Positions 1,411-27,986 of a stretch of DNA of 34,014 bases are shown piece by piece. The position numbers and the translations under genes were made by a program. Source of the DNA: Deltaproteobacteria bacterium. Lineage in GTDB: Bacteria; Desulfobacterota; Dissulfuribacteria; Dissulfuribacterales; UBA3076. The notes below the pieces were generated by a model. That model did no database searches. It was not told where the DNA came from and saw only the letters and a list, made by a program, of their open reading frames with translations. Numbering within the stretch: the stretch's first letter is position 1; each line of letters begins with the position of its first letter. The stretch is taken from assembly GCA_030606515.1 (NCBI GenBank), contig JAUWGF010000002.1, forward strand, positions 1-34,014. The letters run 5' to 3'.

Positions 1411-2382
1411 CTATCGAAAAGCACCACGGCGGTATAATCGCCAGAAAAGTACCCCGGATGCCAGCAGTGGATGCCGTTTTAAGCGGGGACTCACCTCTAC
1501 CGTAATCCCGGAGTGCTGTTCTATCTTCCACAAAATATAATCCAATCCACCTTGGAAAGTAGTCATTCCTTTTAAAAGGCGCAAAGCTGAAAGCAGTTTG
1601 CCTTGAGGGCGTCGTACAGTCCATGCAAGCCGATTGGAAAAACGTATCCGTGCCGGGATGTTGACATGATAGCGGGTCGGATAAGAGCCGGAAGCGACCT
1701 GGACAGGAAACGGTACCGCCGTGATGGCTGCCTGTGTCAGTTGCTCGTAATATTTTATATTTGCGTCAAACAGAGCAAAGATGCTATCGAATTTTTCCGG
1801 CCGAAGTTCGCTGCAGTAGCTGAGCCAAAGTCCCTTCCTCCATAAATCTCTGGCGCAAAAACGGGAGGGCAATATAGGTAAAACACGTGTGATAAAGGTA
1901 ATAACAGAACACGCCAAGGCGTTTTGCACCTGTTGTGCAATTTGGTCATCGCGCACATACACCAACCCGGCGGGCTGAGCAAAACGTGCCCACAGGTAAG
2001 AATGAAAACACCGTCTCGATGTACCCCGCTCAAAGTCCTTGATCGAAAGGACTGCATATTTGGCCCGCACCAAACGCCCCTTGAAAGGCAGCTCAAGATA
2101 GTACACATTCGGAGGGAGCAACCTGTTTAGAAATGCCGGCCAACGTTTACGATGGGCAGAACGGTAGTTATCCACCAATAAATACAGATCGAGTAGACCT
2201 TCATTGTCCCCTTTGCGGAAACAGGAACCGTAAAACAGAATGGCCTGTATCGTCCTGCCATACCGCGCCAGAAGCTCATCAGCAAGGATATGAATTTCGG
2301 GTAAAGGCTGCTGCGAAGATTGCTGACTGATCAGGGCGATAAGCTGTGGTGAAATATGGCGTGCGTCTTTGATACAGTGCAT
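1411..2382 (-). CDS. Tam41/Mmp37-like nucleotidyltransferase (putative phosphatidate-type cytidylyltransferase)
   Basis: 323-aa ORF that starts 8 nt after the stop of the upstream CDP-alcohol transferase gene. The blocks ILFYGSCFRKG, LDLYLLVD, VYYLELPF...AKYAVLSIKDF, FHSYLWARFAQP and LSYCSELRPEK line up with my recollection of mitochondrial Tam41 (YGSGVF, D.I..V, VYFNP...KYGVVS, FYLAGRL.KP, LSY.GD.R). Confidence 0.55.
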   Translation of the reverse strand: MHCIKDARHISPQLIALISQQSSQQPLPEIHILADELLARYGRTIQAILFYGSCFRKGDNEGLLDLYLLVDNYRSAHRKRWPAFLNRLLPPNVYYLELPFKGRLVRAKYAVLSIKDFERGTSRRCFHSYLWARFAQPAGLVYVRDDQIAQQVQNALACSVITFITRVLPILPSRFCARDLWRKGLWLSYCSELRPEKFDSIFALFDANIKYYEQLTQAAITAVPFPVQVASGSYPTRYHVNIPARIRFSNRLAWTVRRPQGKLLSALRLLKGMTTFQGGLDYILWKIEQHSGITVEVSPRLKRHPLLASGVLFWRLYRRGAFR

Positions 2383-2390
2383 ATAATTAG

Positions 2391-3611
2391 CTATAAGTTC
2401 GTGGATTTTCTTGCAGTACGGTTTGTAAACAGCTTTACGCTGAGAGACGGATTATCCGCACTTAGATCAACCTCTGAAAACCAGGAATCCAGGGGACCGG
2501 AGACGATCCGTGTGCCTAAGGCTTGACCTAGTCTCATGACAAGAAGAAGGGTGGTCAACACCGTCCAAAAGGCCACAGCCACCAAACCAAGATCAGGACG
2601 ACCCAATACGGCACCTATTGACAGCAGGATCAGGTTGGGATTACGCCTGGCAGTGATCAGCCTGAAATAGGAATCAATGGGACGCCAGCAGAATATCCCG
2701 AAATTTCCCAGCCACCACCGAAATGCGCCTTCGACCAAACGTCCCCCAATATAACCGAGCACAATACTCCAGAGCACTACACATAAGGATAGCCCGGGAA
2801 TTCCGGGCTGAAACTCTCCCAGACCCAGACCCCATGCAATGTACCACAATGGCGGGTGAATCAGATCAAGGCCGTGATCGAGAATATTGCCGAAGCGGCT
2901 GGAAGTCACGGTCACGCGTGCCAACTTACCGTCAACCGTGTCTAGAAAGGTCATCAGCCAGCCCAACAGAAGGCCCCAGCCATACAGACCAAAAAAGAAT
3001 AAGACGCCGGCAGCCACGACCAAAAATACGCTGGTCCATGTCACGTGGTTCGGCAGCAGGCCATAATGGACGCACAGCCTGGTTGCCCATTTTGCCGGAT
3101 GAGGCCAGACCCATTTGGTAACTAAATCTGTAACACCCTTGTAAGCCCCGGCAAAGAGACGATTTTCCAAGGTCCGGCGATCTTGTGCTGTGACAGGAAG
3201 GACAAAAGGCGGATCAAGCTTGCGCAATTTCCTCTGATAAGAGGAGCATAGGGTTTGCGGGGATTCGGATCGAACGCCCGGGATGACAGAAGTAAAGGCA
3301 GGTCCAGATAGTGCGTCCCAAGCCTTAAGCGCCAGACCGGAGGGAACATGGGCCGCCACTGCCATGGGCCTTTGGCCTGAAGGGTCCACGAGGAGCACAT
3401 TGGAGGTTTCGACCATAGCGTTGATTACTCGATCGTCATACAAATAGTCGCCGCGCAAGAGCAATACTGAGCCCTCCGGCGGAACAGCCCCTATATCCTC
3501 TACTACATTGGTTACGCCTGTGTGCTCGAGCATGCGCTTTAAACGTTGGCGCGAGGATAATCCCCAAAGCCGTACAGGGGTCTCTTTAAAAATCAATACA
3601 TACACAGACAT
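2391..3611 (-). CDS. CDP-alcohol phosphatidyltransferase family protein with a ~170-aa N-terminal cytoplasmic domain
   Basis: Signature D-G-x2-A-R-x8-G-x3-D-x3-D is seen as DTVDGKLARVTVTSSRFGNILDHGLDLIHP. Several hydrophobic helices flank it. I chose the ATG at 3611 (MSVYVLIF...) rather than the 3704 ORF-track start. Confidence 0.8.
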   Translation of the reverse strand: MSVYVLIFKETPVRLWGLSSRQRLKRMLEHTGVTNVVEDIGAVPPEGSVLLLRGDYLYDDRVINAMVETSNVLLVDPSGQRPMAVAAHVPSGLALKAWDALSGPAFTSVIPGVRSESPQTLCSSYQRKLRKLDPPFVLPVTAQDRRTLENRLFAGAYKGVTDLVTKWVWPHPAKWATRLCVHYGLLPNHVTWTSVFLVVAAGVLFFFGLYGWGLLLGWLMTFLDTVDGKLARVTVTSSRFGNILDHGLDLIHPPLWYIAWGLGLGEFQPGIPGLSLCVVLWSIVLGYIGGRLVEGAFRWWLGNFGIFCWRPIDSYFRLITARRNPNLILLSIGAVLGRPDLGLVAVAFWTVLTTLLLVMRLGQALGTRIVSGPLDSWFSEVDLSADNPSLSVKLFTNRTARKSTNL

Positions 3612-3722
3612 AGATATGACCTCTTGTAATACCAAAAACCTTTTACAATAGCTCCACACTGAAATATATTGCGGATATACTATCTGTAAAGGCTGACGAA
3701 CCACACGAACTGATTTTCTGTA

Positions 3723-4679
3723 ATGAGCGAATCATTTATATTTGCACACCTTTCAGACCCCCATCTGACATCCCTGCGTAATATCAGGGTACGAGACCTG
3801 TTGAACAAGCGGGCGCTCGGATATCTCTCATGGCGTCTGCACCGACGCTTTGAATACCGAGGTGAGGTGCTTGCAGCCCTGGTTCGCGACTTGCACTGCA
3901 TCAGGCCGGAACACATTATCATTACCGGTGACTTGACGCATCTGGGTCTGCCATGTGAATTCCTAGAGGTCAAGAAGTGGCTGCATCTTTTGGGCCCTCC
4001 TTCACAGGTCACCGTGATTCCAGGCAATCATGACGCCTATATTGCCACCGACTGGGCCCATACCTTTGTTCACTGGTTAGAATACATGGTATCTGATGCA
4101 GGACAAGATTGTGTCGGAAAAAAGTTAGATACTCGCACACTTTTCCCCAGTCTGCGTATACGCCGCGAAACGGCTTTCATTGGGCTTTCCTCGGTACGGC
4201 CCAGCAAACCGTTTTTTGCCCTGGGCAGTGTGGGACAGATACAATTACAGAAGTTAGGACATATCCTGGCGCAGACGGGCCGTCAGGGCCTGTTTCGGAT
4301 CGTGATGATTCACCATCCTCCTCAGCCCGGCATAGTGACTTGGCGCAGACGGCTTACGGACAGCAGAGAATTACGTTTGCTTATAGCACAACAGGGTGTG
4401 GAGATGGTGTTGCACGGCCATGCCCATCGTTCCTCTATGGCATGGCTAAAGACTCCCGCAGGCCATGCCCCTGCAATTGGTGTCCCGTCCGCATCAGCGA
4501 CGAGCCGGAAGTCTGGGTATAGTGCTCAGTACAATATTTACTCCCTGAGTCAAAATGCTTATGGCTGGGAGATTACAATTGAGGTACGCGGCTATGCGCC
4601 CAAGGAAGGGCGTTTCATAGTCGAGGGCGAAAATCGACTAGCGATTCCCTGTCCGATGCCAGACCTACAGACGTCGTAA
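3723..4679 (+). CDS. Calcineurin-like metallophosphoesterase
   Basis: Motifs in canonical order: AHLSDPH, ITGDLTH, IPGNHD, MIHHPP, LHGHAH. The 3' end overlaps the lptG 3' end by 15 nt (convergent). Confidence 0.8.
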   Translation: MSESFIFAHLSDPHLTSLRNIRVRDLLNKRALGYLSWRLHRRFEYRGEVLAALVRDLHCIRPEHIIITGDLTHLGLPCEFLEVKKWLHLLGPPSQVTVIPGNHDAYIATDWAHTFVHWLEYMVSDAGQDCVGKKLDTRTLFPSLRIRRETAFIGLSSVRPSKPFFALGSVGQIQLQKLGHILAQTGRQGLFRIVMIHHPPQPGIVTWRRRLTDSRELRLLIAQQGVEMVLHGHAHRSSMAWLKTPAGHAPAIGVPSASATSRKSGYSAQYNIYSLSQNAYGWEITIEVRGYAPKEGRFIVEGENRLAIPCPMPDLQTS

Positions 4680-5729
4680 CTGCCTGAGTGCAACATATAC
4701 AATGATGGCTATAGGTGTCATTGTGGTAAGCGCCGGGGAGAGGCTGAATATCAGCCCTAAATATCCAAGGATCTGGACACCAAAATAAAAGGCTATTCCG
4801 ATGATCGAGCCCAACATTATCCTGTTTTCCGTACTTACTGAACGTGGTGACCCGAAGACGAATGGAAGCGAGAGCAAAATCATGGCTCCGGTGCTGAATG
4901 GAATACTCAATTTTTGCCATAAGGCCAATGCATAGTGCTCTGCATTTACCCCTTTTTCCCGGAGTGTCCGGACATATTGATAAAGGTCGGAAGGAGATAG
5001 GGTGTCAGGAGGAAGTGCCAGGACACTGACCTGCTTTGATGTCAAGAATGAATTCCATGTCAGGCCGTCAAACTGCTGTGTGGTTATGTCTACTTCTTTA
5101 ATAATTTTTTGATCCACGTCTTTGAGCAGCCATTGTTTGTTACCGCGGATTTCTGCCTTGCGGGCATGCATGAAGATCTTCATACGGCCTTGTGCGTCAA
5201 ATTCATAGATATCAATGTCTATCGGACCCTCCCCCTGAAGGATATCGTGAACGTGAATAAAGCGGAGACCGTCACTGGCCCAAAACCCGTGTTCCGTCGG
5301 CATTGTACCAGGTCTGGAGAGGGCAAGTAAACGTTGCATCCAGGCATACTGCGCCATTGGCGGAGCGATAAACTCTGCCAGTACTGCCACCACCAGCATG
5401 AGAAGTATGCTGGTACCGAGGACTGAGCACCAGATCCGCTGTACCGAAACACCACAGGTCTGCATGGCCGACAGTTCACTGTGGCTGGCCAGTGGCCCCA
5501 GTGCAACGATGCTCCCCAGCAAAGCGCTTACCGGCATTAGCTCCAGTACGTGCATAGGCAGTGTTAGGGCCACAAATGCAAACGCATCCTGCATTTGATA
5601 CCGTCCAGTTCCGATGTCGTCCAGTTGGCCTACAAGCTCTAAAAAACAAAACAAGGCAACCAATATGATCATGACCAAGAGACATCCTAGAACGACACTT
5701 ACGCCGATATAGCGATCAAGTATTTTCAC
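4665..5729 (-). CDS. lptG: LPS export ABC transporter permease LptG
   Basis: 354 aa with a GTG start. N-terminus is MKILDRYIG. There is a periplasmic middle domain (GFWASDGLRFIHV...IYEF). The C-terminal block WQKLSIPFSTGAMILLSLPFVFGSPRSV resembles E. coli LptG. It lies downstream of lptF, as in E. coli. Confidence 0.8.
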   Translation of the reverse strand: MKILDRYIGVSVVLGCLLVMIILVALFCFLELVGQLDDIGTGRYQMQDAFAFVALTLPMHVLELMPVSALLGSIVALGPLASHSELSAMQTCGVSVQRIWCSVLGTSILLMLVVAVLAEFIAPPMAQYAWMQRLLALSRPGTMPTEHGFWASDGLRFIHVHDILQGEGPIDIDIYEFDAQGRMKIFMHARKAEIRGNKQWLLKDVDQKIIKEVDITTQQFDGLTWNSFLTSKQVSVLALPPDTLSPSDLYQYVRTLREKGVNAEHYALALWQKLSIPFSTGAMILLSLPFVFGSPRSVSTENRIMLGSIIGIAFYFGVQILGYLGLIFSLSPALTTMTPIAIIVYVALRQLRRL

Positions 5730-5865: not shown

Positions 5866-6915
5866 TCAAGGTTGTTTCCATATCAGTGCCAAGAATAGAC
5901 AAGCCAACAACGCATGGATCCACCAGATACCAGGCATAGTACCCACGACCCCATGTTCTACCCAGGTTTTGGCCATCAAAATAGAGTTGTAATAAACAGC
6001 GAAGATCACTACAGCAACAGGCGTCTTGATGCACCTTCCCTGCCGCAGCGCCGTTCGGCTTAAGGGAACAGCCAGCAGCCCTAAGAGCACTGTGGAGAGA
6101 GGCATGGAGAGCCGCCACTGGAATTCTGCGATATCCTCGGGATCGTCGGAACGTGCCAATTGCATGATGGAAGCAGCTTTGGATTTATACTCCACAGGTA
6201 CTGTCTCCTCGGGCAGATGGAATATGAATTGCTTGAATTTTAAAACCTGATCGGCCTTTCTATTAAGGGCGAACTCATACCTGTACCCGTTTAAAAAAAA
6301 CAATATTCGGTCGCCGCTGGTCATATCGACTTTTTGATAGACTTGCTTTGCGTAGATGACCTGCAATGTATCGTTATGTTCATCCTGTATAAAGACTCGT
6401 TTTGCTCGACTCAGATGAGAATCGACCTTTTCTGCAAAAACAACCCGGTTTTCCTGCCCGATTGAGTGGAAACGGCCCGGTTCCATCTGGGCGATATCAA
6501 ATTTAGTTTCCGCCTGTGTCCTCAATCGATGCATTTCCTTATATGCCCAAGGACGGACAAATAAAGACAAGCATGCAATCAGCGCAGCAAAAAGCAGGCA
6601 TAAGTTTAAAACTACAAGGAATATTCGGATATTGCTCACACCGGAGACAGCCAGCGCCGTCATCTCGAAGTTTGTGTAAAGGCGTCTCATAGTCAACACA
6701 ATAGACAGATACAGGGCCATAGATAGGAGTATCTCTAGAGCTTTAACTGTCTTGAGTAGGATCAGGGATATGGCAGTGCTTCTCGGTAACTGCCCGCTCA
6801 CTGCATCAGCCAGGTAATGGGTTGCACTGTAGCTTACGAAAATAACCAGCAAAATGGCAAATATCACCACTAGGGGTTTGCTTATTTCGTGAATTATGTA
6901 ACGGTCTATGAGCAA
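5866..6915 (-). CDS. lptF: LPS export ABC transporter permease LptF
   Basis: 349 aa. N-terminus is (M)LIDRYIIHEISKP, and the layout is a 6-TM YjgP/YjgQ type with a central periplasmic domain. The only in-frame start after the upstream stop is TTG at 6915, so the start is uncertain. Confidence 0.75.
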   Translation of the reverse strand: MLIDRYIIHEISKPLVVIFAILLVIFVSYSATHYLADAVSGQLPRSTAISLILLKTVKALEILLSMALYLSIVLTMRRLYTNFEMTALAVSGVSNIRIFLVVLNLCLLFAALIACLSLFVRPWAYKEMHRLRTQAETKFDIAQMEPGRFHSIGQENRVVFAEKVDSHLSRAKRVFIQDEHNDTLQVIYAKQVYQKVDMTSGDRILFFLNGYRYEFALNRKADQVLKFKQFIFHLPEETVPVEYKSKAASIMQLARSDDPEDIAEFQWRLSMPLSTVLLGLLAVPLSRTALRQGRCIKTPVAVVIFAVYYNSILMAKTWVEHGVVGTMPGIWWIHALLACLFLALIWKQP

Positions 6916-7158: not shown

Positions 7159-7914
7159 ATGAGAGTAGTGATTTTGAGTGCGGGCCAAGGCCGAAGGCTG
7201 TTACCGCTTACCAACAATTTTCCAAAATGCATGCTGTGCATTCATGGGCGATCTTTGCTCGAATGGCAAGTAGATGAACTATTCAAATGTGGCATCGAGC
7301 AAGTGACTGTTGTTGTCGGCTACGGCGCCGATCAGGTCGAGAAACTCTTGGCCGACCGGTATAAATCGCACAAGGTGCGGACCATCTATAATCCGTTTTT
7401 CGCAGTCGCTGACAATCTGGTTTCCTGCTGGGTAGCGCGTACCGAGATGAACGAGAACTTTATTCTTTTGAACGGTGATACCTTGTTCGAAACAGCAGTG
7501 TTACAACGTCTTCTTGCTTCACAGGACCGGCCAGTGACGGTAATCACAGATCGCAAGCTTACGTATGACGCCGACGATATGAAAGTCATGCTGGACGGGG
7601 ACAGTCTCATCAGGATCGACAAGGATATTCCTCTTGATCAGGTTGATGCAGAGTCCGTTGGCATGATCTCCTTTCGTGGGAAGGGGCCAGCTTTATTTCG
7701 TGCGGTTATAGAGCAGGCCTTGCGCAAACCGCAAGGCCTCAAACAGTGGTATCTGTCCGGGATCGATGAGATGGCGCGGTCAATGCCCGTATGGACTTGC
7801 TCCATTGAGGGACTTCAATGGGTCGAGATAGATTATCCCGCCGATTTAAAAGAGGCGGAAAGGCTTGTACAAAATTGGATACCAAAACAAGATCTGTCGG
7901 CCGGTACAGGTTAG
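7159..7914 (+). CDS. Sugar- or alcohol-phosphate nucleotidyl(cytidylyl)transferase, LicC/IPCT-like
   Basis: N-terminus MRVVILSAGQGRRLLPLT carries the G-x-G-x-R-L NTP-transferase signature. LLNGDTLF and VEIDYPADL blocks are also present. I chose the ATG at 7159 instead of the 7030 ORF-track start. Confidence 0.75.
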   Translation: MRVVILSAGQGRRLLPLTNNFPKCMLCIHGRSLLEWQVDELFKCGIEQVTVVVGYGADQVEKLLADRYKSHKVRTIYNPFFAVADNLVSCWVARTEMNENFILLNGDTLFETAVLQRLLASQDRPVTVITDRKLTYDADDMKVMLDGDSLIRIDKDIPLDQVDAESVGMISFRGKGPALFRAVIEQALRKPQGLKQWYLSGIDEMARSMPVWTCSIEGLQWVEIDYPADLKEAERLVQNWIPKQDLSAGTG

Positions 7915-8723
7915 CCTCTCACAATGTCTTGAACAAGTCTCAAATCATCAATGCTATCCACATCTATGGCCGCTTCAGGAAAAGGCATTATAACAGCACC
8001 TGCGATGAGCCCCATCTGGCGCGATATCCGGGCCAGACCCTCATCAAGAGACAGCCGCCCCAGCAAATACCGCAATACTGCCATCCAACCGACGGCACTG
8101 ATCATACGCCATGGCTTCTTGCGCTTGCTTTCCACCTTGCGCCAGAAGTCGGCAGCAGTGCGGGCGCGAGGCGTGAGAAAAGCAAACAGATTGCAACTAC
8201 AGTAAGCACCGTCGCGAAGTCTCGTCACGGTCCTTCTTGTTCCCGGATAGGCCGCCGCCAACAGTTCGTACCGGGCCAGACCGATGACAATGTCGCATTC
8301 TGTAGAGCGGGCACGGGAACAAAAATAATCCACCATCTGAGCGTTCAAAAGGGCGTGATCAGCGGTCGTTACTAGAACGGGTCTATCTTTCGGAAGCGAT
8401 TGCAATATGTACAAAGTACTTGAACTGGGGGTTGCCCGATTTTCCACCCATTTCACATGACCCGATGCAATGCGGTCACAAAGCTCTGCATCCTGATTCA
8501 CTGCATACCGTTGCGGGCCGCACATTATACAGGCGTCTATTTCCTTGGCAGCGTTCAAGGCATCGAGCACGCGAAGGACCATGGGCCTACCGTCCACCAA
8601 AGTCAATGCCTTGCAACAGACCCCTGTTGCCTTGGCAACAGGGTCATCAGGCGAGCGATTCGCCGCAAGGACTACGGCTGTGAAACGTGGTGTCTCTGTA
8701 TTGACATCGCTCAAGTTCCTCAT
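7911..8723 (-). CDS. MobA-like nucleotidyltransferase family protein (NTP_transf_3-like)
   Basis: 270 aa. The N-terminal blocks AVVLAANRS....KAL..VDGRPMV and TTADHALL are typical of MobA-like NTP transferases. Its start overlaps the stop of the upstream gene (ATGA at 8720-8723). Its 3' end overlaps the 7159..7914 gene by 4 nt. Confidence 0.5.
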   Translation of the reverse strand: MRNLSDVNTETPRFTAVVLAANRSPDDPVAKATGVCCKALTLVDGRPMVLRVLDALNAAKEIDACIMCGPQRYAVNQDAELCDRIASGHVKWVENRATPSSSTLYILQSLPKDRPVLVTTADHALLNAQMVDYFCSRARSTECDIVIGLARYELLAAAYPGTRRTVTRLRDGAYCSCNLFAFLTPRARTAADFWRKVESKRKKPWRMISAVGWMAVLRYLLGRLSLDEGLARISRQMGLIAGAVIMPFPEAAIDVDSIDDLRLVQDIVRG

Positions 8724-9964
8724 TTCAGTTTCTTTTGATAGATACGGTAACGTTTGTATACCTCGGCCCCCAGCGACTCCAGCATGTTTCGCATTCTCGT
8801 ATTGTCTTCAAGGATCCAGGACAGTTCCACCTCTTGTATACCGCGTTTGACCACGGCAACACGTACTGCGTCGATTATCATAAACGCGAGCACAGCACCC
8901 AACAGGCTATGCTGATAGCGTTTACGTATGCCCATAAGAACGGCCCGCCCTGTCTTGGGATAGGTTATCTTAAGACGCCATAGCAGTTTGAACCAGCCAA
9001 TAGGCAAAAGCCGTCCGTTAAGATCTCGAATGATCTCATTCAAATTTGGGAATGCGACTATCATAGCTGTCGGGATACCGTCCACTTCGGCGATTTGCAC
9101 AAAGTTTTCATCCACCAGGGACGCCAAATTACGGCCTAAATCTCTAAACTCCGACTCGGTAAAAGGGATGAAACACCAGTTTTGTGACCAGGCATCTTCA
9201 AAGATATCGCGTATGATCTGCAGATCTTTCTCCAGGCTGGATTTGCGCAATGGCCGAATGCGCACCCGCCCTGCCATCTTGCCCATGGCTTGTATAACAG
9301 CAGGTATCATAAAATCAGTGCCGAGACGATATGCCAACAGGTCTTTTTCCTTGAAATAGTCCTGTTCCTCTAACCGCTCCGCGTAGTAAGGACAGGCATG
9401 ACCCATCATGACCATGGGAGGTGTATCAAAACCTTCCACCAGAAGGCCACACTCATGGTTGATGGAAAGGTTAAACGGCCCAAGGACTCGGCGCATGCCC
9501 ATCTCGCGCAGCCAGGTCTCAGCGGCGTTCAGAAGGGACCGGAAAATTGCGGCATCGTTTTGCGCATCCAGCATCCCGAAAAAACCAGTAGCATCCTGAT
9601 AACGTTCCAGATGGAGCTCGTCCACCTGGGCACTGATGCGGCCGACGGGCTGCTTGCCCCGGTAGGCAATCCAGAAACGACAACGTGCATGCGCGAAATA
9701 AGGATTTCGGCGGGACAGATGTTGGTGCCGTTCTATCAAAAGGGGTGGTACCCATACCGGGTCGTCTGCATAGATTGACCACGGAACGCGGATGAACCTG
9801 TACAAGGCACGACGACCTGTCACAGGTACGACTCGTAACAACCCATTATTTTGTCTCTGTCTGCCAGGCGGACGTGGGATAAAAGATTTCATAGCGAATG
9901 AAAACACCGGATATATTCGTATCCATTGGGAAATTACAACATAGAGTAACCGTTCACCGTTCAT
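8720..9964 (-). CDS. GNAT-like acyl-CoA N-acyltransferase; candidate bacterial ceramide synthase (bCerS-type)
   Basis: 414-aa ORF, or 390 aa if the ATG at 9892 (MKSFIP...) is used. The blocks RFIRVPWSIYADDPVWVPPL and GFFGMLDA, and the C-terminal RAVLMGIRKRYQHSLLGAVL, fit a large GNAT-superfamily protein. The function is inferred from its divergent adjacency to the spt operon. Confidence 0.45.
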   Translation of the reverse strand: MNGERLLYVVISQWIRIYPVFSFAMKSFIPRPPGRQRQNNGLLRVVPVTGRRALYRFIRVPWSIYADDPVWVPPLLIERHQHLSRRNPYFAHARCRFWIAYRGKQPVGRISAQVDELHLERYQDATGFFGMLDAQNDAAIFRSLLNAAETWLREMGMRRVLGPFNLSINHECGLLVEGFDTPPMVMMGHACPYYAERLEEQDYFKEKDLLAYRLGTDFMIPAVIQAMGKMAGRVRIRPLRKSSLEKDLQIIRDIFEDAWSQNWCFIPFTESEFRDLGRNLASLVDENFVQIAEVDGIPTAMIVAFPNLNEIIRDLNGRLLPIGWFKLLWRLKITYPKTGRAVLMGIRKRYQHSLLGAVLAFMIIDAVRVAVVKRGIQEVELSWILEDNTRMRNMLESLGAEVYKRYRIYQKKLK

Positions 9965-10062: not shown

Positions 10063-10144
10063 TAAGGCCATTTACAAAACCTATCTTTTGCTTGATAGCT
10101 GCTTGTTCGTCAATGATAAAACTGATCATTATCCAATAGAGGTT

Positions 10145-12016
10145 ATGCAGGCGACACCGACCGAAAACAATCTGCCGTTGCGGGGCGCAGATTTTTCCAC
10201 GCTGGCGGAGGCACTTGATTACGCTGCCCGGGGTAAGACCGGGTATAACTTTTATACCAGCAAAGGGAAACTTTCTGCCGTGCTTCCTTATGCACAATTG
10301 AGGGAAGAGGCACAGGTACTGGCCCTCCGTCTCCACAGCCTGGGGCTGGAACGTGGTACCCGGATGGCACTGGTGGCAGACACTCACCCTGATTTCCAGC
10401 GCTTCTTTTTTGCCTGCCAATACGCCGGCTTGGTGCCGGTCCCACTTCCCGCAATGATTTCCATGGGTAGCCGCAATAATTATGTGGCGCATTTGCGGAG
10501 GCTGCTCGTAAGTAGCCAGGCAGCGGTTGCCATGGCCCATGAAGGGTTTATCGAGTTTCTTGCCGAGGCCGCTGCAGGATTGGACCTCAGGTTTGTCGGC
10601 GCCCCTAATGCATTTGCTGATCTTCCCCAAAGCACTATCCAGCCGCTTCCCATAGGACCCATGGAGATGGCCTACATTCAATACACATCTGGAAGCACGC
10701 GCTTCCCGCGTGGGGTGATCATCTCCCAAAAAGCGATTCTGAGCAATCTGAGAGGCATTATTAGGACCGGGCTCCGGATGCGGCCCGATGATCGTTGCCT
10801 ATCCTGGCTTCCATATTACCATGATATGGGCTTTGTTGGATTCGTACTGGCCCCGCTGGCATGTCAGCGCTCTGTCGATTACTTGGGCACTCAGGCATTT
10901 GCAATGCGGCCCAGGCAGTGGTTGGCCCTGATGACCCAGAGCAGGGCCACGATCTCTTTCGGTCCACCGTTTGGTTATGAACTCTGCGCACGCCGAGTCA
11001 GGAAAAGCGATATGGACCGGTTTGACCTCAGTGCCTGGCGCGTGGCAGGAGTCGGAGCGGAAATAATCCGTCCCGACTTCCTAAAACAGTTCGCGAAAAT
11101 CTTTGCTCCCTGTGGATTCGACAAAAAGGCCTTTCTAGCTTGCTACGGCATGGCAGAATGCTCTCTCGGTGTGAGTTTTGCGTCTCTCGGCCAGGGTCTG
11201 GATGTGGACATTATAGACACCGACCATTTTGTTGCACACCAGGAGGTATTGGCTGTGGAGGACGGTTCAGAGGAAGAGCGCCCTTTGCGTACGAGCATCT
11301 TCGTTAAGTGCGGCAAACCGCTGCCAGGGTATGAAGTCGTAGTACGGGATCGGCAAGGAAGGGAATTGCCGGACAAGCGCTGCGGGATCATTTTTATTAA
11401 GGGGCCGAGTGTGATGTCCGGTTATATCGGAGATATTGATGCGACCCGGGAGGTCCTGTCCCAGGATGGCTGGCTCAATACCGGTGATATCGGTTATCGA
11501 ATCCAGGGAGATATCGTGATTACTGGACGTGAAAAGGACTTGATCATTATCAACGGCCACAATATCTGGCCTCAGGACCTGGAGTATCTGGTCGAGCAGA
11601 AGCCCGGGGTGAGGCGTGGAGATGCAATGGCCTTTTCCGTCACAGGTGCAGGAGGAAAAGAAATCGTTGTCATGGTCGTTCAGTGCCGTGAATCCGACCC
11701 AGCGAAGAAAAAATCCATGACCAAACAACTGCAGGGTTTGATCCGCCAGGGATCGGGTATTGACTGCTTCGTGGAACTGGTCCCTCCCCATACATTACCT
11801 CGCACTTCTTCCGGGAAGCCGTCTCGATCCAAAGCGCGGCAGGATTTTATCCAACGAATTGGGCAAGGCCACAAAAGTGCACAGAAACGGCCTACGACAA
11901 AACGCCCAGCAGAGTATTCCGCCTTAGATAGATATTACAAGGATAATCCGTTTGCTGATTTATTTTTTCCCGATTATCCCAAACGCATTTCTGAATCAGT
12001 GTTCATCGATAGATAG
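10145..12016 (+). CDS. Fatty acyl-AMP ligase / acyl-ACP synthetase-like adenylating enzyme
   Basis: AMP-binding core motif YIQYTSGSTRFPRGVIIS, plus GYELCA, TGDIGY and the C-terminal PRTSSGKPSR. AGAGG sits 4 nt before the ATG at 10145. The C-terminal ~70 aa form a basic extension. Confidence 0.8.
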   Translation: MQATPTENNLPLRGADFSTLAEALDYAARGKTGYNFYTSKGKLSAVLPYAQLREEAQVLALRLHSLGLERGTRMALVADTHPDFQRFFFACQYAGLVPVPLPAMISMGSRNNYVAHLRRLLVSSQAAVAMAHEGFIEFLAEAAAGLDLRFVGAPNAFADLPQSTIQPLPIGPMEMAYIQYTSGSTRFPRGVIISQKAILSNLRGIIRTGLRMRPDDRCLSWLPYYHDMGFVGFVLAPLACQRSVDYLGTQAFAMRPRQWLALMTQSRATISFGPPFGYELCARRVRKSDMDRFDLSAWRVAGVGAEIIRPDFLKQFAKIFAPCGFDKKAFLACYGMAECSLGVSFASLGQGLDVDIIDTDHFVAHQEVLAVEDGSEEERPLRTSIFVKCGKPLPGYEVVVRDRQGRELPDKRCGIIFIKGPSVMSGYIGDIDATREVLSQDGWLNTGDIGYRIQGDIVITGREKDLIIINGHNIWPQDLEYLVEQKPGVRRGDAMAFSVTGAGGKEIVVMVVQCRESDPAKKKSMTKQLQGLIRQGSGIDCFVELVPPHTLPRTSSGKPSRSKARQDFIQRIGQGHKSAQKRPTTKRPAEYSALDRYYKDNPFADLFFPDYPKRISESVFIDR

Positions 12017-12058: not shown

Positions 12059-13000
12059 ATGTCTCGTGTGATTGCCTTGACGGGAGCAACCGGGTTCATA
12101 GGCGGTGTACTGGCACAGCGGCTTGAGGCCGAAGGCTGGCAAGTCAGGGCCTTAGTGCGTCTTTCCTCGGTTAAGGCCCGGCTTACCGGCATGGTCACGC
12201 AGTGGGTGATAGGGGACCTGGAGGACATGGACAGCCTACGCCGTTTGGTTTGCGGTGCAGAAGCCGTCGTGCACTGTGCAGGCGCAGTTCGTGGCGCATC
12301 CCAGGACTATTTTAATCGGGTCAATAGCGCAGGTGTAGCGAGGCTGGCCCAGGCTGCTACAGAAAACTATCCGCCACCGCGCTTTTTGATGATTTCTTCG
12401 CTGGCGGCCCGTGAACCGGACATCTCTCCGTACGCGGCCAGCAAGCGACAAGGTGAAGCCGCATTGGCGGCTACTGCAAAGGAAATGGACTGGACTGTGT
12501 TCCGGCCGCCTGCTGTGTATGGACCCGGGGACAAAGAACTGCTGCCGCTGTTGCGCTGGATAGGACGGGGTATCGCTTTGGTGCCGGGTGCTGGTCATGC
12601 CCGCCGGTTTTCATTGTTATACATAGAAGACTTGGCAGAGGCGGTGATAAGATGGTTGGAAAGCGACAGTTGTGGACAAGATGTATTCGAACTGCACGAC
12701 GATCGTAGCGGCGGATATACTTGGAGTGATGTGATCAAAACGATCGCACTGCTACGCGCCAGACCTGTCCTTCGCGTGCGGGTGCCTGTGACGGTACTTG
12801 CTACCCTGACCAAGCTGAATCTGATGACGGCCAGGATGGTAGGATATGCGCCGATGCTGACCCCTGGAAAATTACGGGAACTTATGCATCCCGACTGGGT
12901 GTGCGATAATACGCCCTTTAGCAAGGCAACCGGATGGAAACCGCAGATTCCCCTGGAAGAAGGCCTGCTGCGTACATTGGGATGGCACGACGAATCTTGA
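12059..13000 (+). CDS. NAD(P)-dependent epimerase/dehydratase-fold reductase, CerR-like (candidate ceramide/3-keto reductase)
   Basis: Rossmann motif ALTGATGFIGG at the N-terminus and a YAASK catalytic Y-x3-K. It sits between the ligase and ACP genes, as in the Caulobacter ceramide cluster. Confidence 0.65.
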   Translation: MSRVIALTGATGFIGGVLAQRLEAEGWQVRALVRLSSVKARLTGMVTQWVIGDLEDMDSLRRLVCGAEAVVHCAGAVRGASQDYFNRVNSAGVARLAQAATENYPPPRFLMISSLAAREPDISPYAASKRQGEAALAATAKEMDWTVFRPPAVYGPGDKELLPLLRWIGRGIALVPGAGHARRFSLLYIEDLAEAVIRWLESDSCGQDVFELHDDRSGGYTWSDVIKTIALLRARPVLRVRVPVTVLATLTKLNLMTARMVGYAPMLTPGKLRELMHPDWVCDNTPFSKATGWKPQIPLEEGLLRTLGWHDES

Positions 13001-13015
13001 AAGGAGCGCGAACCT

Positions 13016-13264
13016 ATGTCACAGTATGAAGACATCCTTGCACAAATCTATCCGGTTCTGCAGCAGCTCGCCCGTGACAAGCAGGAAATCAATGAAGCGA
13101 CGGATTTGGTAGCCGATCTCGGTCTTGATTCTATGGCGGTAATGGAACTTCTACCCGCTATAGAGGACTGCTTCGATATCTCCATTCCATTAAATATATT
13201 GCCAGATGTCCGTACGGTTAAGGACCTTGCTTCACAGGTCCAACAATTGATGCTGGAATCGTGA
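13016..13264 (+). CDS. Acyl carrier protein
   Basis: 82 aa with the phosphopantetheine attachment motif DLGLDSMAVMEL. AAGGAG lies upstream. The stop overlaps the spt start (TGATG). Confidence 0.85.
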   Translation: MSQYEDILAQIYPVLQQLARDKQEINEATDLVADLGLDSMAVMELLPAIEDCFDISIPLNILPDVRTVKDLASQVQQLMLES

Positions 13265-14505
13265 TGGGCATTTTCGACAAGTTCCATCGTCTCGCTACGG
13301 ATCAGCGGGCCCTGGTAGATAGTGGCGTCAATCCTTTTAACGTCGTCATCGAGCGGCTCATTTCGGCAACCGAGGCGATCGTGAACGGACGTCACACCAT
13401 CTTAGCCGGTACCAACAACTATTTGGGGCTTACTTTTGATCCGCAATGTATCGAAGCGGCAAAAAAGGCCGTTCAAGCTCAAGGGACCGGGACGACTGGA
13501 TCACGGATGGCAAACGGGACATATGCTGGTCATGCTGCGTTGGAACGTGAATTTGCAGACTTTTTCGGTTACCGTTCTGCCATCGTATTTTCTACCGGCT
13601 ACCTTGCCAATCTGGGGATGTTGTCGGTCCTGGCGGGTCGCGGTGATACGATTTTGGTAGATGCACACTGTCATGCGAGTATCTATGACGGATGCCGCAT
13701 GGGCAGTGCGGAAATCATTCGATTCCGACATAACAATGTGATTGATTTAGAGAAACGCCTACGACGGCTTGGCAAAAAGACCGCAAATACACTGATTCTG
13801 GTGGAGGGCATCTATAGTATGTTAGGCGACCGGGCCCCTCTGGCAGATATAGTAACCTTAAAGCAGAAATACGGTGCCTATCTACTGGTGGACGAGGCCC
13901 ATTCACTGGGTGTTCTTGGTGAACACGGGCGCGGGCTTCTCGAGGAAGCCGGTGTGGGAAACAGCATGGACTTTATCATAGGTACCTTTAGCAAAAGTCT
14001 GGGCGCAACCGGCGGCTTTTGTGTCAGCAACCACCCTGAATTGGATCTGATTCGCTATGCCAGCCGCCCGTATATCTTTACCGCGTCGCCTGCTCCACCG
14101 GTCATCGCCTCCACCCGGACTGCACTCAAGATACTTAAGACACACCCTGAATTGCGCCGACGGCTCTGGCGTAACGCCCGCCATTTGTATCAAGGTCTTG
14201 ACGATATGGGCTTCAGCCTGGGCCCGGAGATCAGTCCTATTGTTGCAGTCCGCTTGCCGAGTGTAAAACAGGCCCTCGTCCTCTGGGGCAATCTTTTGGA
14301 TCGCGGGGTGTATGTGAATCTGGCATTACCCCCGGCCACACCGGACAGCGCGTCCCTGGTTCGCTGTAGCGTGAGCGCAGCGCATACTCAGGAACAAATA
14401 GACTACATCTGCAAGGTCTTTTCCGATCTGAGAGAAGGTGCCATAACCCTGGATGCGCAGTCAACCGCGGTCGATAGCCCTTTGGATGTTACACCCGCAT
14501 CCTGA
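13264..14505 (+). CDS. spt: Serine palmitoyltransferase (alpha-oxoamine synthase family)
   Basis: The PLP-lysine block is GTFSKSLGATGGF. The long blocks HASIYDGC..AEIIRFRHN..DLEKRL, VEGIYSMLGD, LVDEAHS, RPYIFTAS and YVNLALPPATP closely match my recollection of Sphingomonas SPT, and fit it better than BioF or Kbl. GTG at 13261 is an alternative start. Confidence 0.85.
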   Translation: MGIFDKFHRLATDQRALVDSGVNPFNVVIERLISATEAIVNGRHTILAGTNNYLGLTFDPQCIEAAKKAVQAQGTGTTGSRMANGTYAGHAALEREFADFFGYRSAIVFSTGYLANLGMLSVLAGRGDTILVDAHCHASIYDGCRMGSAEIIRFRHNNVIDLEKRLRRLGKKTANTLILVEGIYSMLGDRAPLADIVTLKQKYGAYLLVDEAHSLGVLGEHGRGLLEEAGVGNSMDFIIGTFSKSLGATGGFCVSNHPELDLIRYASRPYIFTASPAPPVIASTRTALKILKTHPELRRRLWRNARHLYQGLDDMGFSLGPEISPIVAVRLPSVKQALVLWGNLLDRGVYVNLALPPATPDSASLVRCSVSAAHTQEQIDYICKVFSDLREGAITLDAQSTAVDSPLDVTPAS

Positions 14506-14582
14506 ATGTGAGACAGGCGGGTATTGCACGAAGAAGGGCTTATCCTGATTTTTGGAATCTTGGCAATGGCCGGACGCATAAC

Positions 14583-15647
14583 ATGAAGAAGAGAGAAGCG
14601 AGGCCCTTTTGCGAGGTCCATTTCGGCGGTCCTGATATGCCGGCATACTGCTTGCGTGACCTCCTAGCGGAACGTATCGCTGCGGTGCCGCCCGGCGGAA
14701 CCATTGATTGGGTAACATACTACTTTCGTGACCGGATGCTGGCCGAGGAATTAATCCGTGCCCACCGGCAAGGCATCAAGGTTACTGTGACACTGGAGCG
14801 TCATCCTCGAACAGCGTATGCCAATGAGAATGTAATTGGAATGTTGTCTGGCCCGAATGGCTTAGGCGAAGGGTTTCGTACCGTGTCCCTGCAGCGGGTG
14901 CCAACCTCTCCCGGGATAGTTTGGAAACCGCATTTGCATGAAAAGCTCTATTGCTTTTCCCACCCGAGGCCGATTGCCTTTATCGGTTCCTTTAACCCGT
15001 CCGGAAATGGTCCAGGGGATGATCCAGCTATCATAGCTGAAATCGGTGACCAGGATCACGGTCACAATGTCCTGGTTGGGCTTGATGACCCCAGGCTGGT
15101 TGAAAGGCTGGTTGAACATGCCCGGTGGATCCACCAGACGAAACGTATCATGTTCTATCGTTTTTCCCCGACTGCAAACAAAGCGGTGAAAGGGAAGGAC
15201 ACCGATATTTTTTTTTGGCCGCGGATACGGCCGCATCCTGTAATACGGTTTCTCTCACGGCTTGGAGCGGGCGCGCGGATACGAATTGCTGCGTCACACA
15301 TCAAAGGGGCGCCAATCGTCAAGGCCTTGATACGACTTGTCCACAGTGGCGCAATAGTAAAGATATTGGCTGAACCAACACTGAGACGGGTCCCTGTGGG
15401 GGTAGAGCGGATGCTGATTCAAGCCGGAATCCCGTTCCGGCGCGTTATTCATCCTAAGGGTCTTCCGATGCATAACAAGTTCGTGCTTGCGGAGAAGGAT
15501 GGCCGGCGCTGGGTTATTTTCGGCAGCTTTAACTGGACAACTCGATCTTATTGGCTCAATCATGAGATTGGCGCTATTTCCACCAATGATCAACTCTTTG
15601 ATGCGTTTGCCAAGCGCTGGGAGGCCTTGGCAGTTCGCAGGGATTAA
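14583..15647 (+). CDS. Phospholipase D superfamily protein with two HKD motifs
   Basis: HKD-1 is HLHEKLYCF...IGSFNPS. HKD-2 is PMHNKFVLAEKDGRRWVIFGSFNWT. No TM helix is evident. The start is ambiguous (GTG 14508, ATG 14583 or ATG 14637). Confidence 0.75.
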   Translation: MKKREARPFCEVHFGGPDMPAYCLRDLLAERIAAVPPGGTIDWVTYYFRDRMLAEELIRAHRQGIKVTVTLERHPRTAYANENVIGMLSGPNGLGEGFRTVSLQRVPTSPGIVWKPHLHEKLYCFSHPRPIAFIGSFNPSGNGPGDDPAIIAEIGDQDHGHNVLVGLDDPRLVERLVEHARWIHQTKRIMFYRFSPTANKAVKGKDTDIFFWPRIRPHPVIRFLSRLGAGARIRIAASHIKGAPIVKALIRLVHSGAIVKILAEPTLRRVPVGVERMLIQAGIPFRRVIHPKGLPMHNKFVLAEKDGRRWVIFGSFNWTTRSYWLNHEIGAISTNDQLFDAFAKRWEALAVRRD

Positions 15648-15658
15648 AAGCAGCTGTT

Positions 15659-17029
15659 ATGACTATTTCACCTTCAACCCTTATTATTCCGGTAGAGACG
15701 CAAGTCCGGGAGATGGATGCCAAACTTCTCTTGGGTTGTATTGCGGTTGAGAGCGGTTTTCCTGTCATTATAGGCTCACGGGCGTTTCTCCATTTCCGGG
15801 TAGACTCGATTCCGAGGGGCGTTTATCTTGCCAAGAGCATTCGTTCGTTAAGCATTCGTATGTTCGACATCCTGCGCAAGCTTGGTCATGAAATCGTTGC
15901 GTGCGATGAGGAAGGCCTGCTGCGTGAACCAGACCCTGAATATTACCGGTGGCGACTGTCACCTATCACTATGCGGCAAGTCTCCCACCTGATTGCGTGG
16001 GGCCCGGATGACGCGAGCACCTTTCGCAAGTATCCCGGCTATCATGGAGCGGAAATCCATATTACCGGGAATCCCCGCGTCGACTTGATACGGCCGGAAC
16101 TTCGTGAGTTTTACCGGTCAGACGCAGATGCAATTCGTGAACGGTTCGGAGACTTCGTGCTGGTCAACACAAACTTTAGCAAGGTAAACCATTTTTATCC
16201 GGAGCTCAGCGAACTTAAAAAGGCAATGGCAAAAGATGGCACCGATGCGGCGAATCGATTTGATATCGGTAAAGGTCGGCATAAACTTGCCCTTTTTAAT
16301 TACTTTCAGGAGATGCTTCCATCACTTTGTGAGTCGCTGGGTAACTCTAATGTGGTCGTCCGGCCTCACCCGGCTGAGAACCAAGGTCCATGGCATGCCA
16401 TAGCTGCACGGTGTGACAATCTGCATGTGGCAAACGATGGGAGCGTAATTCCGTGGCTGATGGCAGCACAGGCATTAATTGCGAATGGCTGTACGACCCA
16501 AGTGGAGGCTGCAGTGCTCGGCACGCCGACTGTGAACTACCAGCCAGTGAAATCAGAGATGTTCGACTTTGAATTGCCTGGTTTGGTAAGCCGGTGTGTC
16601 TTTTCACTCGATGAACTCTGCACGACGGTTCGTGCCATCGTGAAAGGAAATCTCGGGCTGCTTGATTATGCTGAGCGTCGAAAGATATTGGATCGGCACA
16701 TCGCGGGGCTTGACGGCCCTTTGGCAGCGGAACGGATTATCCAGGTCCTGGAGGCCGGAGGCTACAACAAGAGACAACCCCCGGCTACATCATTGAACGT
16801 CTATGTCCATGGCTGGATCCAAAACCACTTGCGGACAATGTCGAAACGTATCAATATGCATCGACCCGGGCATCGAAATAATCTAGCCTACCATGCCTAT
16901 CGCTTTCCAGATATTTCTGTGTCGGAAATCATGAGAAAGATAGCATGCATGGGAAGATTGCTTAATCGCTTTGAGACCATCAAGGTTACACAGGTATCTA
17001 AGCATATATTCAGGATCAGCATCAATTAA
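15659..17029 (+). CDS. Surface-carbohydrate biosynthesis protein, predicted GT-B-like transferase (paralogue 1)
   Basis: 456 aa, roughly 40% identical by eye to 24175..25569. Shared blocks include LIIP.E.QVRE.D.KLLL, ITGNPR.D, ..N.NFS.VN, RPHP.EN, NGCTT..EA, LDGPLA..RII and GHRNN. The fold assignment is a guess from the alternating pattern. Confidence 0.45.
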   Translation: MTISPSTLIIPVETQVREMDAKLLLGCIAVESGFPVIIGSRAFLHFRVDSIPRGVYLAKSIRSLSIRMFDILRKLGHEIVACDEEGLLREPDPEYYRWRLSPITMRQVSHLIAWGPDDASTFRKYPGYHGAEIHITGNPRVDLIRPELREFYRSDADAIRERFGDFVLVNTNFSKVNHFYPELSELKKAMAKDGTDAANRFDIGKGRHKLALFNYFQEMLPSLCESLGNSNVVVRPHPAENQGPWHAIAARCDNLHVANDGSVIPWLMAAQALIANGCTTQVEAAVLGTPTVNYQPVKSEMFDFELPGLVSRCVFSLDELCTTVRAIVKGNLGLLDYAERRKILDRHIAGLDGPLAAERIIQVLEAGGYNKRQPPATSLNVYVHGWIQNHLRTMSKRINMHRPGHRNNLAYHAYRFPDISVSEIMRKIACMGRLLNRFETIKVTQVSKHIFRISIN

Positions 17030-17042
17030 AGGAGATATTCTC

Positions 17043-18146: not shown

Positions 18147-18177
18147 TAAGTGCCCGTCCGGAAACAAGGTAAATTTT

Positions 18178-19701: not shown

Positions 19702-19737
19702 TGTGAGTTTTTAGCTACGTTTCATAACGAGGGTTAT

Positions 19738-20370
19738 GTGGGAATACAAGTAATTGTCTTTGACTTTGACGGAACGCTTATTGACTCAAACCAGTTAAAA
19801 TACGATGCGTATTTTAAACTGTTCCCAGACAATGACCGCCATGCCTCAATCATTCGTGTGGTCCTTTCTGAAATATTTGAACAAAGCCGTTACGTCATCC
19901 TGAAAGAGATTCTCCTGAGACTTGGTTACAGGAGGGATGCGCTTTTAAGGGAAAAAGTCAAAGAGCTGGCCGGGTTTTACAACGCAGTTGTTGTGGCAGG
20001 GGCAAAAACCTGCCCGGAGAAGGCAGGAGCGGAAGAGGCGCTCAGAAAATTTTCGTCGGCATATGGACTATACGTGAGTTCCACCACCCCTGATGCCAAT
20101 CTGAAAGAGATTGTTCGATTCAGAAAATGGGATGGCTATTTTCGTGCCGTGTTTGGATGGCCGAATGAAAAGCATGAGACACTCCGGCGTATCATTGCAT
20201 TAGAAGGGTTGAAAAACGCTCAGGTGCTTGTCGTGGGAGATGGAGAATCCGATAGAGAATCAGCGATGAAAAACGGATGCCCTTTTCTCTTTGTTAACGA
20301 ACGGTTTCGATTCGAGGACCTCGGGAATGCCATGGATGGTCTGTGTATATCAAATTGGACAAAAGGATAA
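19738..20370 (+). CDS. HAD-superfamily phosphatase
   Basis: GTG start. Motif I is VIVFDFDGTLIDS and motif IV-like is VVGDGESD. A cap-domain-sized insert lies between them. Confidence 0.75.
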   Translation: MGIQVIVFDFDGTLIDSNQLKYDAYFKLFPDNDRHASIIRVVLSEIFEQSRYVILKEILLRLGYRRDALLREKVKELAGFYNAVVVAGAKTCPEKAGAEEALRKFSSAYGLYVSSTTPDANLKEIVRFRKWDGYFRAVFGWPNEKHETLRRIIALEGLKNAQVLVVGDGESDRESAMKNGCPFLFVNERFRFEDLGNAMDGLCISNWTKG

Positions 20371-20373
20371 TCA

Positions 20374-21263: not shown

Positions 21264-21330
21264 AGGTTAATGAGTTTCCAAATTTCTGGTCATAATTTTC
21301 AGGAAAGTCTCTACGTTGGGTTTGGAGTGC

Positions 21331-27969: not shown

Positions 27970-27986
27970 CGATTCGATGCATACCT

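Follow-up and report, generated by a model that had tools for sequence, protein, structure and literature searches.

Three genes of a probable cpg-type ceramide head-group cluster, with a Tam41-fold protein, in a Thermodesulfobacteriota-type lineage

We have analysed three adjoining genes on contig JAUWGF010000002.1, of which positions 1 to 34,014 are considered here (34,014 nucleotides, hereafter the window). They encode a Tam41-like protein of 323 aa, a putative cytidylyltransferase by its fold (1411-2382, minus strand), a CDP-alcohol phosphotransferase of 406 aa (2391-3611, minus strand, in a frame which stays open back to 3704) and a calcineurin-like metallophosphoesterase (3723-4679, plus strand). 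The three products are homologs of CpgC, CpgA and CC_1158 of Caulobacter crescentus, and the genes are very probably part of the equipment for a charged sphingolipid head group. A previous reading of this DNA, made from the sequence alone, had proposed that the genes form a CDP-activated lipid route to such a head group, and all the open reading frames (ORFs), spacings and motifs which it quoted could be located. The Tam41-like gene and the transferase gene are separated by 8 nt on the minus strand, with the transferase stop codon TAG at 2391 and the Tam41-like ATG at 2382. The phosphoesterase gene is divergent from the transferase gene, and the spacer of 111 nt between them (3612-3722) holds if the ATG at 3611 is the transferase start. 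This is the likely start, because an AAGAGG Shine-Dalgarno sequence lies 8 nt upstream of it and because the 406-aa product which it gives agrees with homologs of 401-408 aa.

The cluster CC_1152-CC_1165 of Caulobacter is responsible for two lipids, ceramide phosphoglycerate (CPG) and ceramide diphosphoglycerate (CPG2) (PMC9393093, PMC11324152). Gene knockouts have shown that CpgB (CCNA_01218), a ceramide kinase of the DAGK/LCB5 type, and CpgC (CC_1161/CCNA_01219) are required for CPG; the cpgC mutant loses CPG and retains or accumulates ceramide phosphate (PMC9393093). CpgA (CC_1159/CCNA_01217), which is PgsA-like, is needed only for the conversion of CPG to CPG2 and not for the first head group (PMC9393093, PMC11324152). 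Olea-Ozuna et al. 2024 added CC_1152, CC_1153 and CC_1158 to the CPG2 step and described genes for LptF2/LptG2 in the cluster (PMC11324152). CC_1152, now CpgD, makes CDP-glycerate in vitro, and this was proposed to be the donor for CpgA (PMC12275187).

To obtain Caulobacter sequences for comparison, we searched metagenome contigs for the part of a published cc_1160 primer that covers the gene end (22 nt), which was matched exactly in three contigs; a scan of the metagenomes with an assumed 34-nt cc_1160/cc_1161 junction gave no match. Eight primers have been published for cc_1158 to cc_1161, and one of the comparison loci (L086) contains sites for six of them, ordered and oriented as expected (0-4 mismatches); besides the exactly matched cc_1160 primer, these are five other cloning primers which match collinearly with 2-4 mismatches each. 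Over its first 25 nt, the CC_1158-type reference ORF differs from the forward primer published for cc_1158 at 2 positions. In a second locus (L088), the protein at the CpgC position is 87% identical to C. vibrioides CA606_08125 (P0244) and to a protein of Caulobacter sp. SL161 (P0245), both of which end in RRQAA, as encoded by the cc_1161 reverse primer oLOP455. These primer matches, protein ends and identities together indicate that the comparison loci are those of Caulobacter.

The proteins of the window resemble their Caulobacter counterparts over their full lengths. Residues 17-321 of the Tam41-like protein align with residues 7-293 of CpgC (P0245) at 32% identity (E 7e-43), nearly full length; the transferase is 43% identical to CpgA over residues 6-380, its N-terminal domain included (E 1e-95), and the phosphoesterase 38% identical to the CC_1158 homolog (E 4e-63). 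Against L086, identity is 49% for a first nucleotidyltransferase at the CpgD position (E 5e-73), 34% for a second one at the CC_1153 position (E 9e-32), 45% for an acyltransferase at the bCerS (CC_1154) position (E 3e-103) and 59% for serine palmitoyltransferase, Spt (E 3e-153). The enzymes thus lie between 32 and 59%, whereas the LptF/LptG pair reaches only 20-23%. The gene order of L086 is spt, cpgC, cpgB, cpgA, phosphoesterase, two Lpt permeases, bCerS and two nucleotidyltransferases, which the window mirrors save for inversions and a missing kinase gene. The domain types also match those published for the Caulobacter cluster (CCNA_01210-01223), namely Tam41/IPR015222 for CpgC, a CDP-alcohol transferase for CpgA and a phosphoesterase for CC_1158. 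Two differences in content stand out: cpgB is gone from the window, and a phospholipase D (PLD)-like gene is coupled to spt here, while the Caulobacter cluster as described has none. The host also differs, since it belongs to a Thermodesulfobacteriota-type lineage of metagenome-assembled genomes (MAGs) and is not an alphaproteobacterium.

The Tam41 label itself needed more than one line of evidence. Searched by itself, the 323-aa protein matched nothing in Pfam or NCBIfam even at E<=10, and a single-sequence search of the PDB also gave no match; the proposed PF09139 assignment therefore failed for the protein and stood for its family, in which 20 of 25 aligned homologs, 55-63% identical to the window protein, match PF09139 at E<=1 (best E 2.4e-10). 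About 4,180 homologs are present in the protein collection, many of them with a precomputed PF09139 match, and family profiles match Tam41 of Schizosaccharomyces pombe (6IG2 and 6IG4) with E values of 1.7e-3 and 3.8e-4. The AlphaFold2 model of the protein (predicted local distance difference test score, pLDDT, 82.6; predicted template modelling score 0.83) had only Tam41 structures among its five best Foldseek matches in the PDB (6IG4, 6IG2 and 7ECD; E 1e-10 to 1e-8, template modelling scores 0.49-0.60), and the next-best fold was that of aminoglycoside nucleotidyltransferases (ANT; E 2e-4). The homolog matches, the family profiles and the structure search agree that the label was right at the family level, and we regard the protein as a predicted remote Tam41-fold enzyme. 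Like Tam41/Mmp37 from S. pombe (6IG2/6IG4) and Firmicutes (7ECD), the model combines a nucleotidyltransferase domain with a helical/winged-helix one and has a basic helix at its C-terminus, and it has in common with Tam41 the motifs YGS, K-Y, Y-L-x-x-R-F-x-x-P and S-Y-x-x-[ED]-[LI]-R...E-x-P. The catalytic residues were compared through hidden Markov model alignments and a secondary source. The invariant residues of the family include YGS (51-53), D65, K108, R133, Q136, Y189, E192, R194 and E196; at the D-x-D site of nucleotidyltransferases D65 is the sole acidic residue, with Y67 invariant after it, and Tam41 likewise has one acidic residue at this position according to that secondary source. 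What sets the window protein apart from Tam41 is the marginal sequence similarity (profile E 1e-3 to 1e-4), its own lack of a PF09139 match and its genome context, which is one of sphingolipid and not of glycerophospholipid genes. From this gene context, ceramide-1-phosphate is likely to be its substrate rather than phosphatidate. One homolog, in an alphaproteobacterial MAG (L085:10001-10969), has an internal stop, which marks a pseudogene or a sequencing error, and the alignment was made without it.

The transferase matches PF01066 (E 6.7e-10), as the sequence-only reading had expected, and carries the complete CDP-alcohol motif D-x2-D-G-x2-A-R-x8-G-x3-D-x3-D from D224 to D249, which is invariant among 29 homologs. 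The transmembrane catalytic domain is preceded by an N-terminal domain of about 125-170 aa, of which residues 1-125 are confidently modelled (pLDDT about 85-90). With the whole model, the best Foldseek matches were AF2299, PIP synthases and IPCT-DIPPS (E 3e-7 to 9e-6), and the N-terminal part alone weakly matched stand-alone CTP:inositol-1-phosphate cytidylyltransferase (IPCT; E about 1e-2, probability 0.99); no match to this domain was found in Pfam or NCBIfam even at E<=10. Its consensus, LWGLSSRQRL, has neither the glycine loop G-x-G-x-R-L nor the lysine signature. The description of this domain as a degenerate nucleotidyltransferase fold reminiscent of IPCT/DIPPS fusions was therefore a fair one in view of the structural matches and the lost glycine loop. 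The archaeal IPCT-DIPPS and AF2299 proteins share with the transferase a cytosolic N-terminal alpha/beta domain before the transmembrane catalytic domain, and in the chemistry proposed they also share a soluble CDP-alcohol donor produced by a cytidylyltransferase. They differ from it in that a competent N-terminal cytidylyltransferase of about 230 aa, with the G-x-G-x-R-L loop and the catalytic lysine, is lacking here, where the cytidylyltransferase is encoded by a separate gene (7159-7914) and the acceptor is probably a lipid. As the N-terminal domain is short, has lost the loop and the lysine signature and has no Pfam match, it is probably catalytically inactive. In some relatives the transferase is fused to a kinase, giving proteins of about 738 aa which combine a CpgA-like part with a DAGK_cat (CpgB-like) part (P0125, P0130, P0133, P0139; L001:5291-7507). 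The identification of the phosphoesterase held as well: PF00149 (Metallophos) matches with E 2.4e-11, and the metal-binding motifs DPH, GDLTH, GNHD, HHPP and HGHAH are all present. Its weak relatives in the PDB are the phosphodiesterases Rv0805, Icc and GpdQ, a kinship which is compatible with both trimming and pyrophosphate cleavage and which extends the cited cpg papers.

The surroundings of the three genes are rich in ceramide-synthesis genes, as had been stated earlier. At 6-12 kb from the Tam41-like gene lie a bCerS-like acyltransferase of 414 aa with a weak GNAT match (8720-9964, minus strand), an AasR-like acyl-ACP synthetase (10088-12016, plus strand; AMP-binding, E 1.6e-53), which is syntenic with ceramide genes in relatives, a CerR-like NAD-dependent reductase with conserved synteny (12059-13000, plus strand; Epimerase, E 3.3e-27), an AcpR-like acyl carrier protein (ACP) of 82 aa with the phosphopantetheine-site motif LGLDSM (13016-13264, plus strand), placed between the CerR-like gene and spt, and Spt itself (13261-14505, plus strand), which scores 640.6 bits with NF047599 against a cutoff of 500. 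Nearer to the core is the CpgD-like nucleotidyltransferase, a probable CTP:phosphoglycerate cytidylyltransferase by its sequence (7159-7914, plus strand, open from 7030; NTP_transferase/NTP_transf_3). Its top PDB match is LicC (1JYK), and it also matches IMPCT (4JD0); the same two proteins are the PDB neighbours reported for CpgD (PMC12275187, PMC11324152). The second nucleotidyltransferase (7911-8723, minus strand) is CC_1153-like and resembles MobA/CofC (PF12804, E 2.1e-13).

To see how far these associations extend, we made a one-genome-per-species scan for relatives of the 323-aa protein. They are present in at least 595 species of Thermodesulfobacteriota, Nitrospirota, Myxococcota, Binatia, Geobacterales and the Gamma- and Alphaproteobacteria, the closest among the matches listed being in an uncultured Thermodesulfobacteriaceae MAG (94% identity; locus L006). 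Synteny was then surveyed by tblastn of the window proteins and of a DAGK_cat protein from a related locus (L005) against 85 loci, of which 74 had enough sequence, 52 had at least 9 kb upstream and 36 had both flanks covered; one locus (L002, CP070697), whose genes look fragmented, was uninformative. In 66 of 74 loci the Tam41-like gene is immediately preceded by a DAGK_cat gene. Of the 52 loci with sufficient upstream sequence, 43 have ceramide-synthesis genes no more than 10 kb away (31/36 when both flanks are covered), so that the refuting condition set by the sequence-only reading, a trio found chiefly where spt is missing, did not refute it. The phosphoesterase accompanies the kinase and Tam41-like pair in 41 of 46 loci. 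The CDP-alcohol transferase behaves differently from that pair. It is present in 33 of the 52 loci and follows the CpgD-like gene, not the Tam41-like gene, in its occurrence: transferase and CpgD-like gene both occur in 28 loci, neither in 16 and only one of them in 8 (44/52 concordant; Fisher p 1.2e-6, not corrected for phylogeny), while it shows no link to the CC_1153-like gene (p 0.76). The remaining 19 loci have the Tam41-like gene and no transferase; 15 of them retain the kinase, 13 the phosphoesterase and 12 the second nucleotidyltransferase, and they span Syntrophobacterales, Desulfobacteraceae, Desulfatibacillum, Hyphomicrobiales and Gammaproteobacteria. The genes thus fall into two modules, one of kinase, Tam41-like protein and phosphoesterase and the other of transferase and CpgD-like enzyme, a division which independently reproduces the Caulobacter genetics as regards kinase plus CpgC for the first unit and CpgA plus CpgD for the second.

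In a short variant of the cluster neither transferase nor CpgD-like gene is present, while kinase, Tam41-like, phosphoesterase and CC_1153-like genes are retained (L003, L010, L014, L030, L037, L042, L043, L055, L061, L064, L065, L069, L077, L080, L082 and L083). Loci without CpgA and CpgD thus still have the phosphoesterase and the CC_1153-like nucleotidyltransferase, and these two may act beyond the CPG2 step and not, as deduced for Caulobacter, in the second phosphoglycerate addition alone, an observation which goes beyond the cited cpg papers. In five loci from gammaproteobacterial MAGs (L067, L068, L071, L072 and L075) the Tam41-like gene directly follows the bCerS-like gene, with AasR, CerR and Spt nearby and no kinase, phosphoesterase, transferase or LptF/G gene within 10 kb.

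In most relatives a DAGK_cat kinase gene (cpgB) lies between the transferase gene and the Tam41-like gene (for example L005:8943-9998). It is missing from this junction in the window (2383-2390), from the 94%-identical L006 and from L053, and the 8-nt adjacency of the transferase and Tam41-like genes arises here because the intervening ceramide kinase gene is absent. A tblastn search with the L005 kinase at E<=10 found nothing in the 34-kb window, in L006, in L053 or in the kinase-less gammaproteobacterial loci, and in L006 the 10 kb beyond the Tam41-like gene contain unrelated genes and no DAGK-like sequence. The kinase gene being absent, the entry to the pathway is not visible in the window. 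Probably the ceramide kinase is encoded elsewhere in the genome; a variant route in this kinase-less lineage is also possible. A Kdo/WaaP-family kinase gene (287-1150), convergent with the Tam41-like gene, was considered as a substitute and rejected, since in no other locus surveyed does it stand beside a member of the family. Kinase-Tam41 fusions suggested by over-long ORFs were likewise rejected, the two matches lying in different frames.

How could these proteins work together? We are rather confident that the three genes belong to an operon set of the cpg type which adds an anionic phospho-acid head group to ceramide, by homology that of CPG/CPG2, with the product probably residing in the outer membrane. 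Ceramide would be made by the homologs of Spt, AcpR, AasR, bCerS and CerR and, by analogy with CpgB, phosphorylated to ceramide-1-phosphate by a DAGK-type kinase encoded outside the window. The Tam41-like CpgC homolog would then use CTP and ceramide-1-phosphate to form a CDP-ceramide-like intermediate, which glycerate or phosphoglycerate would resolve. CTP-dependent activation appears the most parsimonious solution, because joining a phosphomonoester and glycerate into a phosphodiester needs activation and because the fold is that of a lipid-phosphate cytidylyltransferase. As in Caulobacter, the CpgD-like enzyme may supply a soluble CDP-acid (CDP-glycerate), from which the transferase would move phosphoglycerate onto the lipid in a DIPPS-like manner, so that its donor would not be the Tam41 product; the phosphoesterase and the second nucleotidyltransferase, as counterparts of CC_1158 and CC_1153, may assist the CPG2 step, and the adjacent LptF/G pair would export the lipid. 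The study of CpgD drew an analogy with TagD/TagF of teichoic-acid synthesis (PMC12275187), in which a cytidylyltransferase also makes a soluble CDP-activated polyol or acid that is polymerised onto a membrane acceptor; here, by contrast, the transferase family is CDP-OH_P_transf and not TagF, and a sphingolipid probably acts as acceptor. Both the Tam41 domain of CpgC and the notion of an NDP-activated ceramide have been in print since 2024 (PMC11324152), while the mechanism of CpgC is still described as unidentified (PMC12275187, PMC13228409); the term CDP-ceramide did not occur in the literature searched. Several points weigh against this interpretation. No DAGK_cat gene was detected in the window or in L006 at a tblastn E<=10, the covariation statistics take no account of phylogeny, and no enzyme activity has been published for CpgC, CpgA or CC_1158 (PMC12275187, PMC13228409). 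No enzyme is assigned to the resolution of a CDP-ceramide intermediate. Finally, identity to CpgC is only 32% and some residues invariant in the family differ in Caulobacter (Y109, for example, is V there), so the substrate or product could differ in this phylum.

Could the Tam41-like enzyme instead hand its product to the neighbouring transferase? This was the coupling suggested by the sequence-only reading: CDP-ceramide would serve as the donor for the transferase, and the phosphoesterase would trim a phosphate as with intermediates of the PGP or PIP type. The gap of 8 nt between the two genes invites it, as do the CDP-lipid users of the CDP-OH family (PIP synthases are among the closest NCBIfam and PDB matches of the transferase), the transferase-kinase fusions in relatives and the constancy with which the phosphoesterase accompanies the kinase and Tam41-like pair (41/46). 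However, the adjacency results from the absence of the kinase gene, a Caulobacter cpgA knockout still makes CPG, so that CpgC works independently of CpgA, and 19 of the 52 loci have the Tam41-like gene without a transferase, which moreover co-varies with the CpgD-like CDP-glycerate synthase (p 1.2e-6). Taken together, the co-occurrence of the modules and the Caulobacter genetics argue against the coupling, and we consider it improbable that the Tam41-like enzyme supplies the donor to the adjacent transferase. Of the earlier proposal, membership of a sphingolipid pathway stands (43/52 loci) and a nucleotide-activated ceramide is reasonable, while the link to the transferase is unlikely. A narrower version deserves more weight, although we hold it to be less likely than not: the Tam41-fold protein may be a CTP:ceramide-1-phosphate cytidylyltransferase making CDP-ceramide, which in the kinase-less lineage the transferase might consume directly as a variant of the Caulobacter route. 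As far as the literature searched goes, CDP-ceramide would then be a sphingolipid liponucleotide so far observed in no organism.

Two further explanations dispense with ceramide altogether. The trio might be an ordinary glycerophospholipid module, in which a Tam41-like CDP-diacylglycerol synthase feeds a PgsA/PIPS-like transferase and a phosphatase follows. Bacterial Tam41 homologs can make CDP-diacylglycerol (Kimura 2022, as cited in a secondary source), the fold match includes the Firmicutes protein 7ECD, and the best NCBIfam matches of the transferase are AIP and PIP synthases. All these NCBIfam scores are, however, far below their cutoffs, the window protein fails PF09139, the family sits in ceramide-synthesis clusters across several phyla, and in the cpgC mutant of Caulobacter ceramide phosphate builds up and CPG disappears, which makes a glycerophospholipid role very unlikely. 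Or perhaps the trio modifies lipid A or the lipopolysaccharide (LPS) core, adding a phospho-substituent to LPS and not to ceramide? LptF/G genes stand directly beside it in most loci, and the window has three Kdo/WaaP-family kinases and two GT9 genes. Yet there are gamma- and alphaproteobacterial loci in which the Tam41-like gene adjoins bCerS, AasR, CerR and Spt and LptF/G is missing, lipidomics in Caulobacter places the products of the homologs on ceramide, and the Kdo kinase neighbour is conserved in no other locus; we find this explanation hardly credible. A cpg-type head-group pathway on ceramide is thus the reading we prefer.

The pathway is the published cpg system, now found in another phylum with the missing kinase as a variation, and adds no new kind of system; the earlier expectation of a new bacterial Tam41-type pathway falls away, since the genes are homologs of cpgC, cpgA and CC_1158 with published knockouts (PMC9393093, PMC11324152). 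In Caulobacter, anionic ceramide phosphoglycerates let the cell survive without lipid A and are the main target of colistin (PMC9393093). The same gene set now appears in an anaerobic Thermodesulfobacteriota-type lineage, and the survey extends it to hundreds of species in several phyla. The lipids may therefore be widespread in outer membranes and not a curiosity of Caulobacter. The Tam41 structural match, the conserved motifs and the co-occurrence in two modules sharpen the question of the biochemical step which CpgC performs.

Some other features of the window may be mentioned. An LptF/LptG-family permease gene (4665-5729, minus strand; PF03739, E 9e-66) is the positional counterpart of Caulobacter LptF2/LptG2; its product is 23% identical to the L086 counterpart and it is syntenic in most related loci. 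A second permease gene of this family (5866-6915, minus strand; PF03739, E 1.9e-58) also shows conserved synteny. A role for LptF2/LptG2 in sphingolipid export is a published proposal (PMC11324152). In L003 a third gene of the family (14117-15298) follows the Tam41-like gene at a distance of about 4 kb, besides the pair adjoining the phosphoesterase, which fits the published idea of the cluster pair as a dedicated second copy. The PLD-like protein (14508-15647, plus strand) has two PLDc_2 stretches, and its gene begins 3 nt past the spt stop codon. In two Desulfobulbaceae/deltaproteobacterial loci (L029 and L032), homologs 65-67% identical to it are encoded just after the Tam41-like gene, some 1.1-1.3 kb downstream. 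The protein of the window is a candidate for the enzyme which would resolve an activated ceramide.

After the sphingolipid genes comes a sugar block of the nonulosonic-acid type (15659-21117 and 24175-25569), with a NeuB-cupin fusion, a GFO/IDH/MocA oxidoreductase, an HAD phosphatase and a cytidylyltransferase of the CMP-sugar type. Such a block may hint at a glycosylated lipid or at an LPS core. It is flanked by two paralogous genes for TIGR04396 'surface carbohydrate biosynthesis' proteins. Between the sugar genes and the second of these lie a 238-aa ORF with no family match (21316-22032, plus strand), a gene for a DUF4833 protein (22298-22834, plus strand) and one for a MipA-family outer-membrane protein (22898-23791, minus strand). 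Besides the Kdo/WaaP-family kinase gene at 287-1150, two more occur at 25716-26555 and 31363-32931, and between these are the two GT9 heptosyltransferase-like genes (26884-29474) and a B12-binding radical SAM gene (29541-31058).

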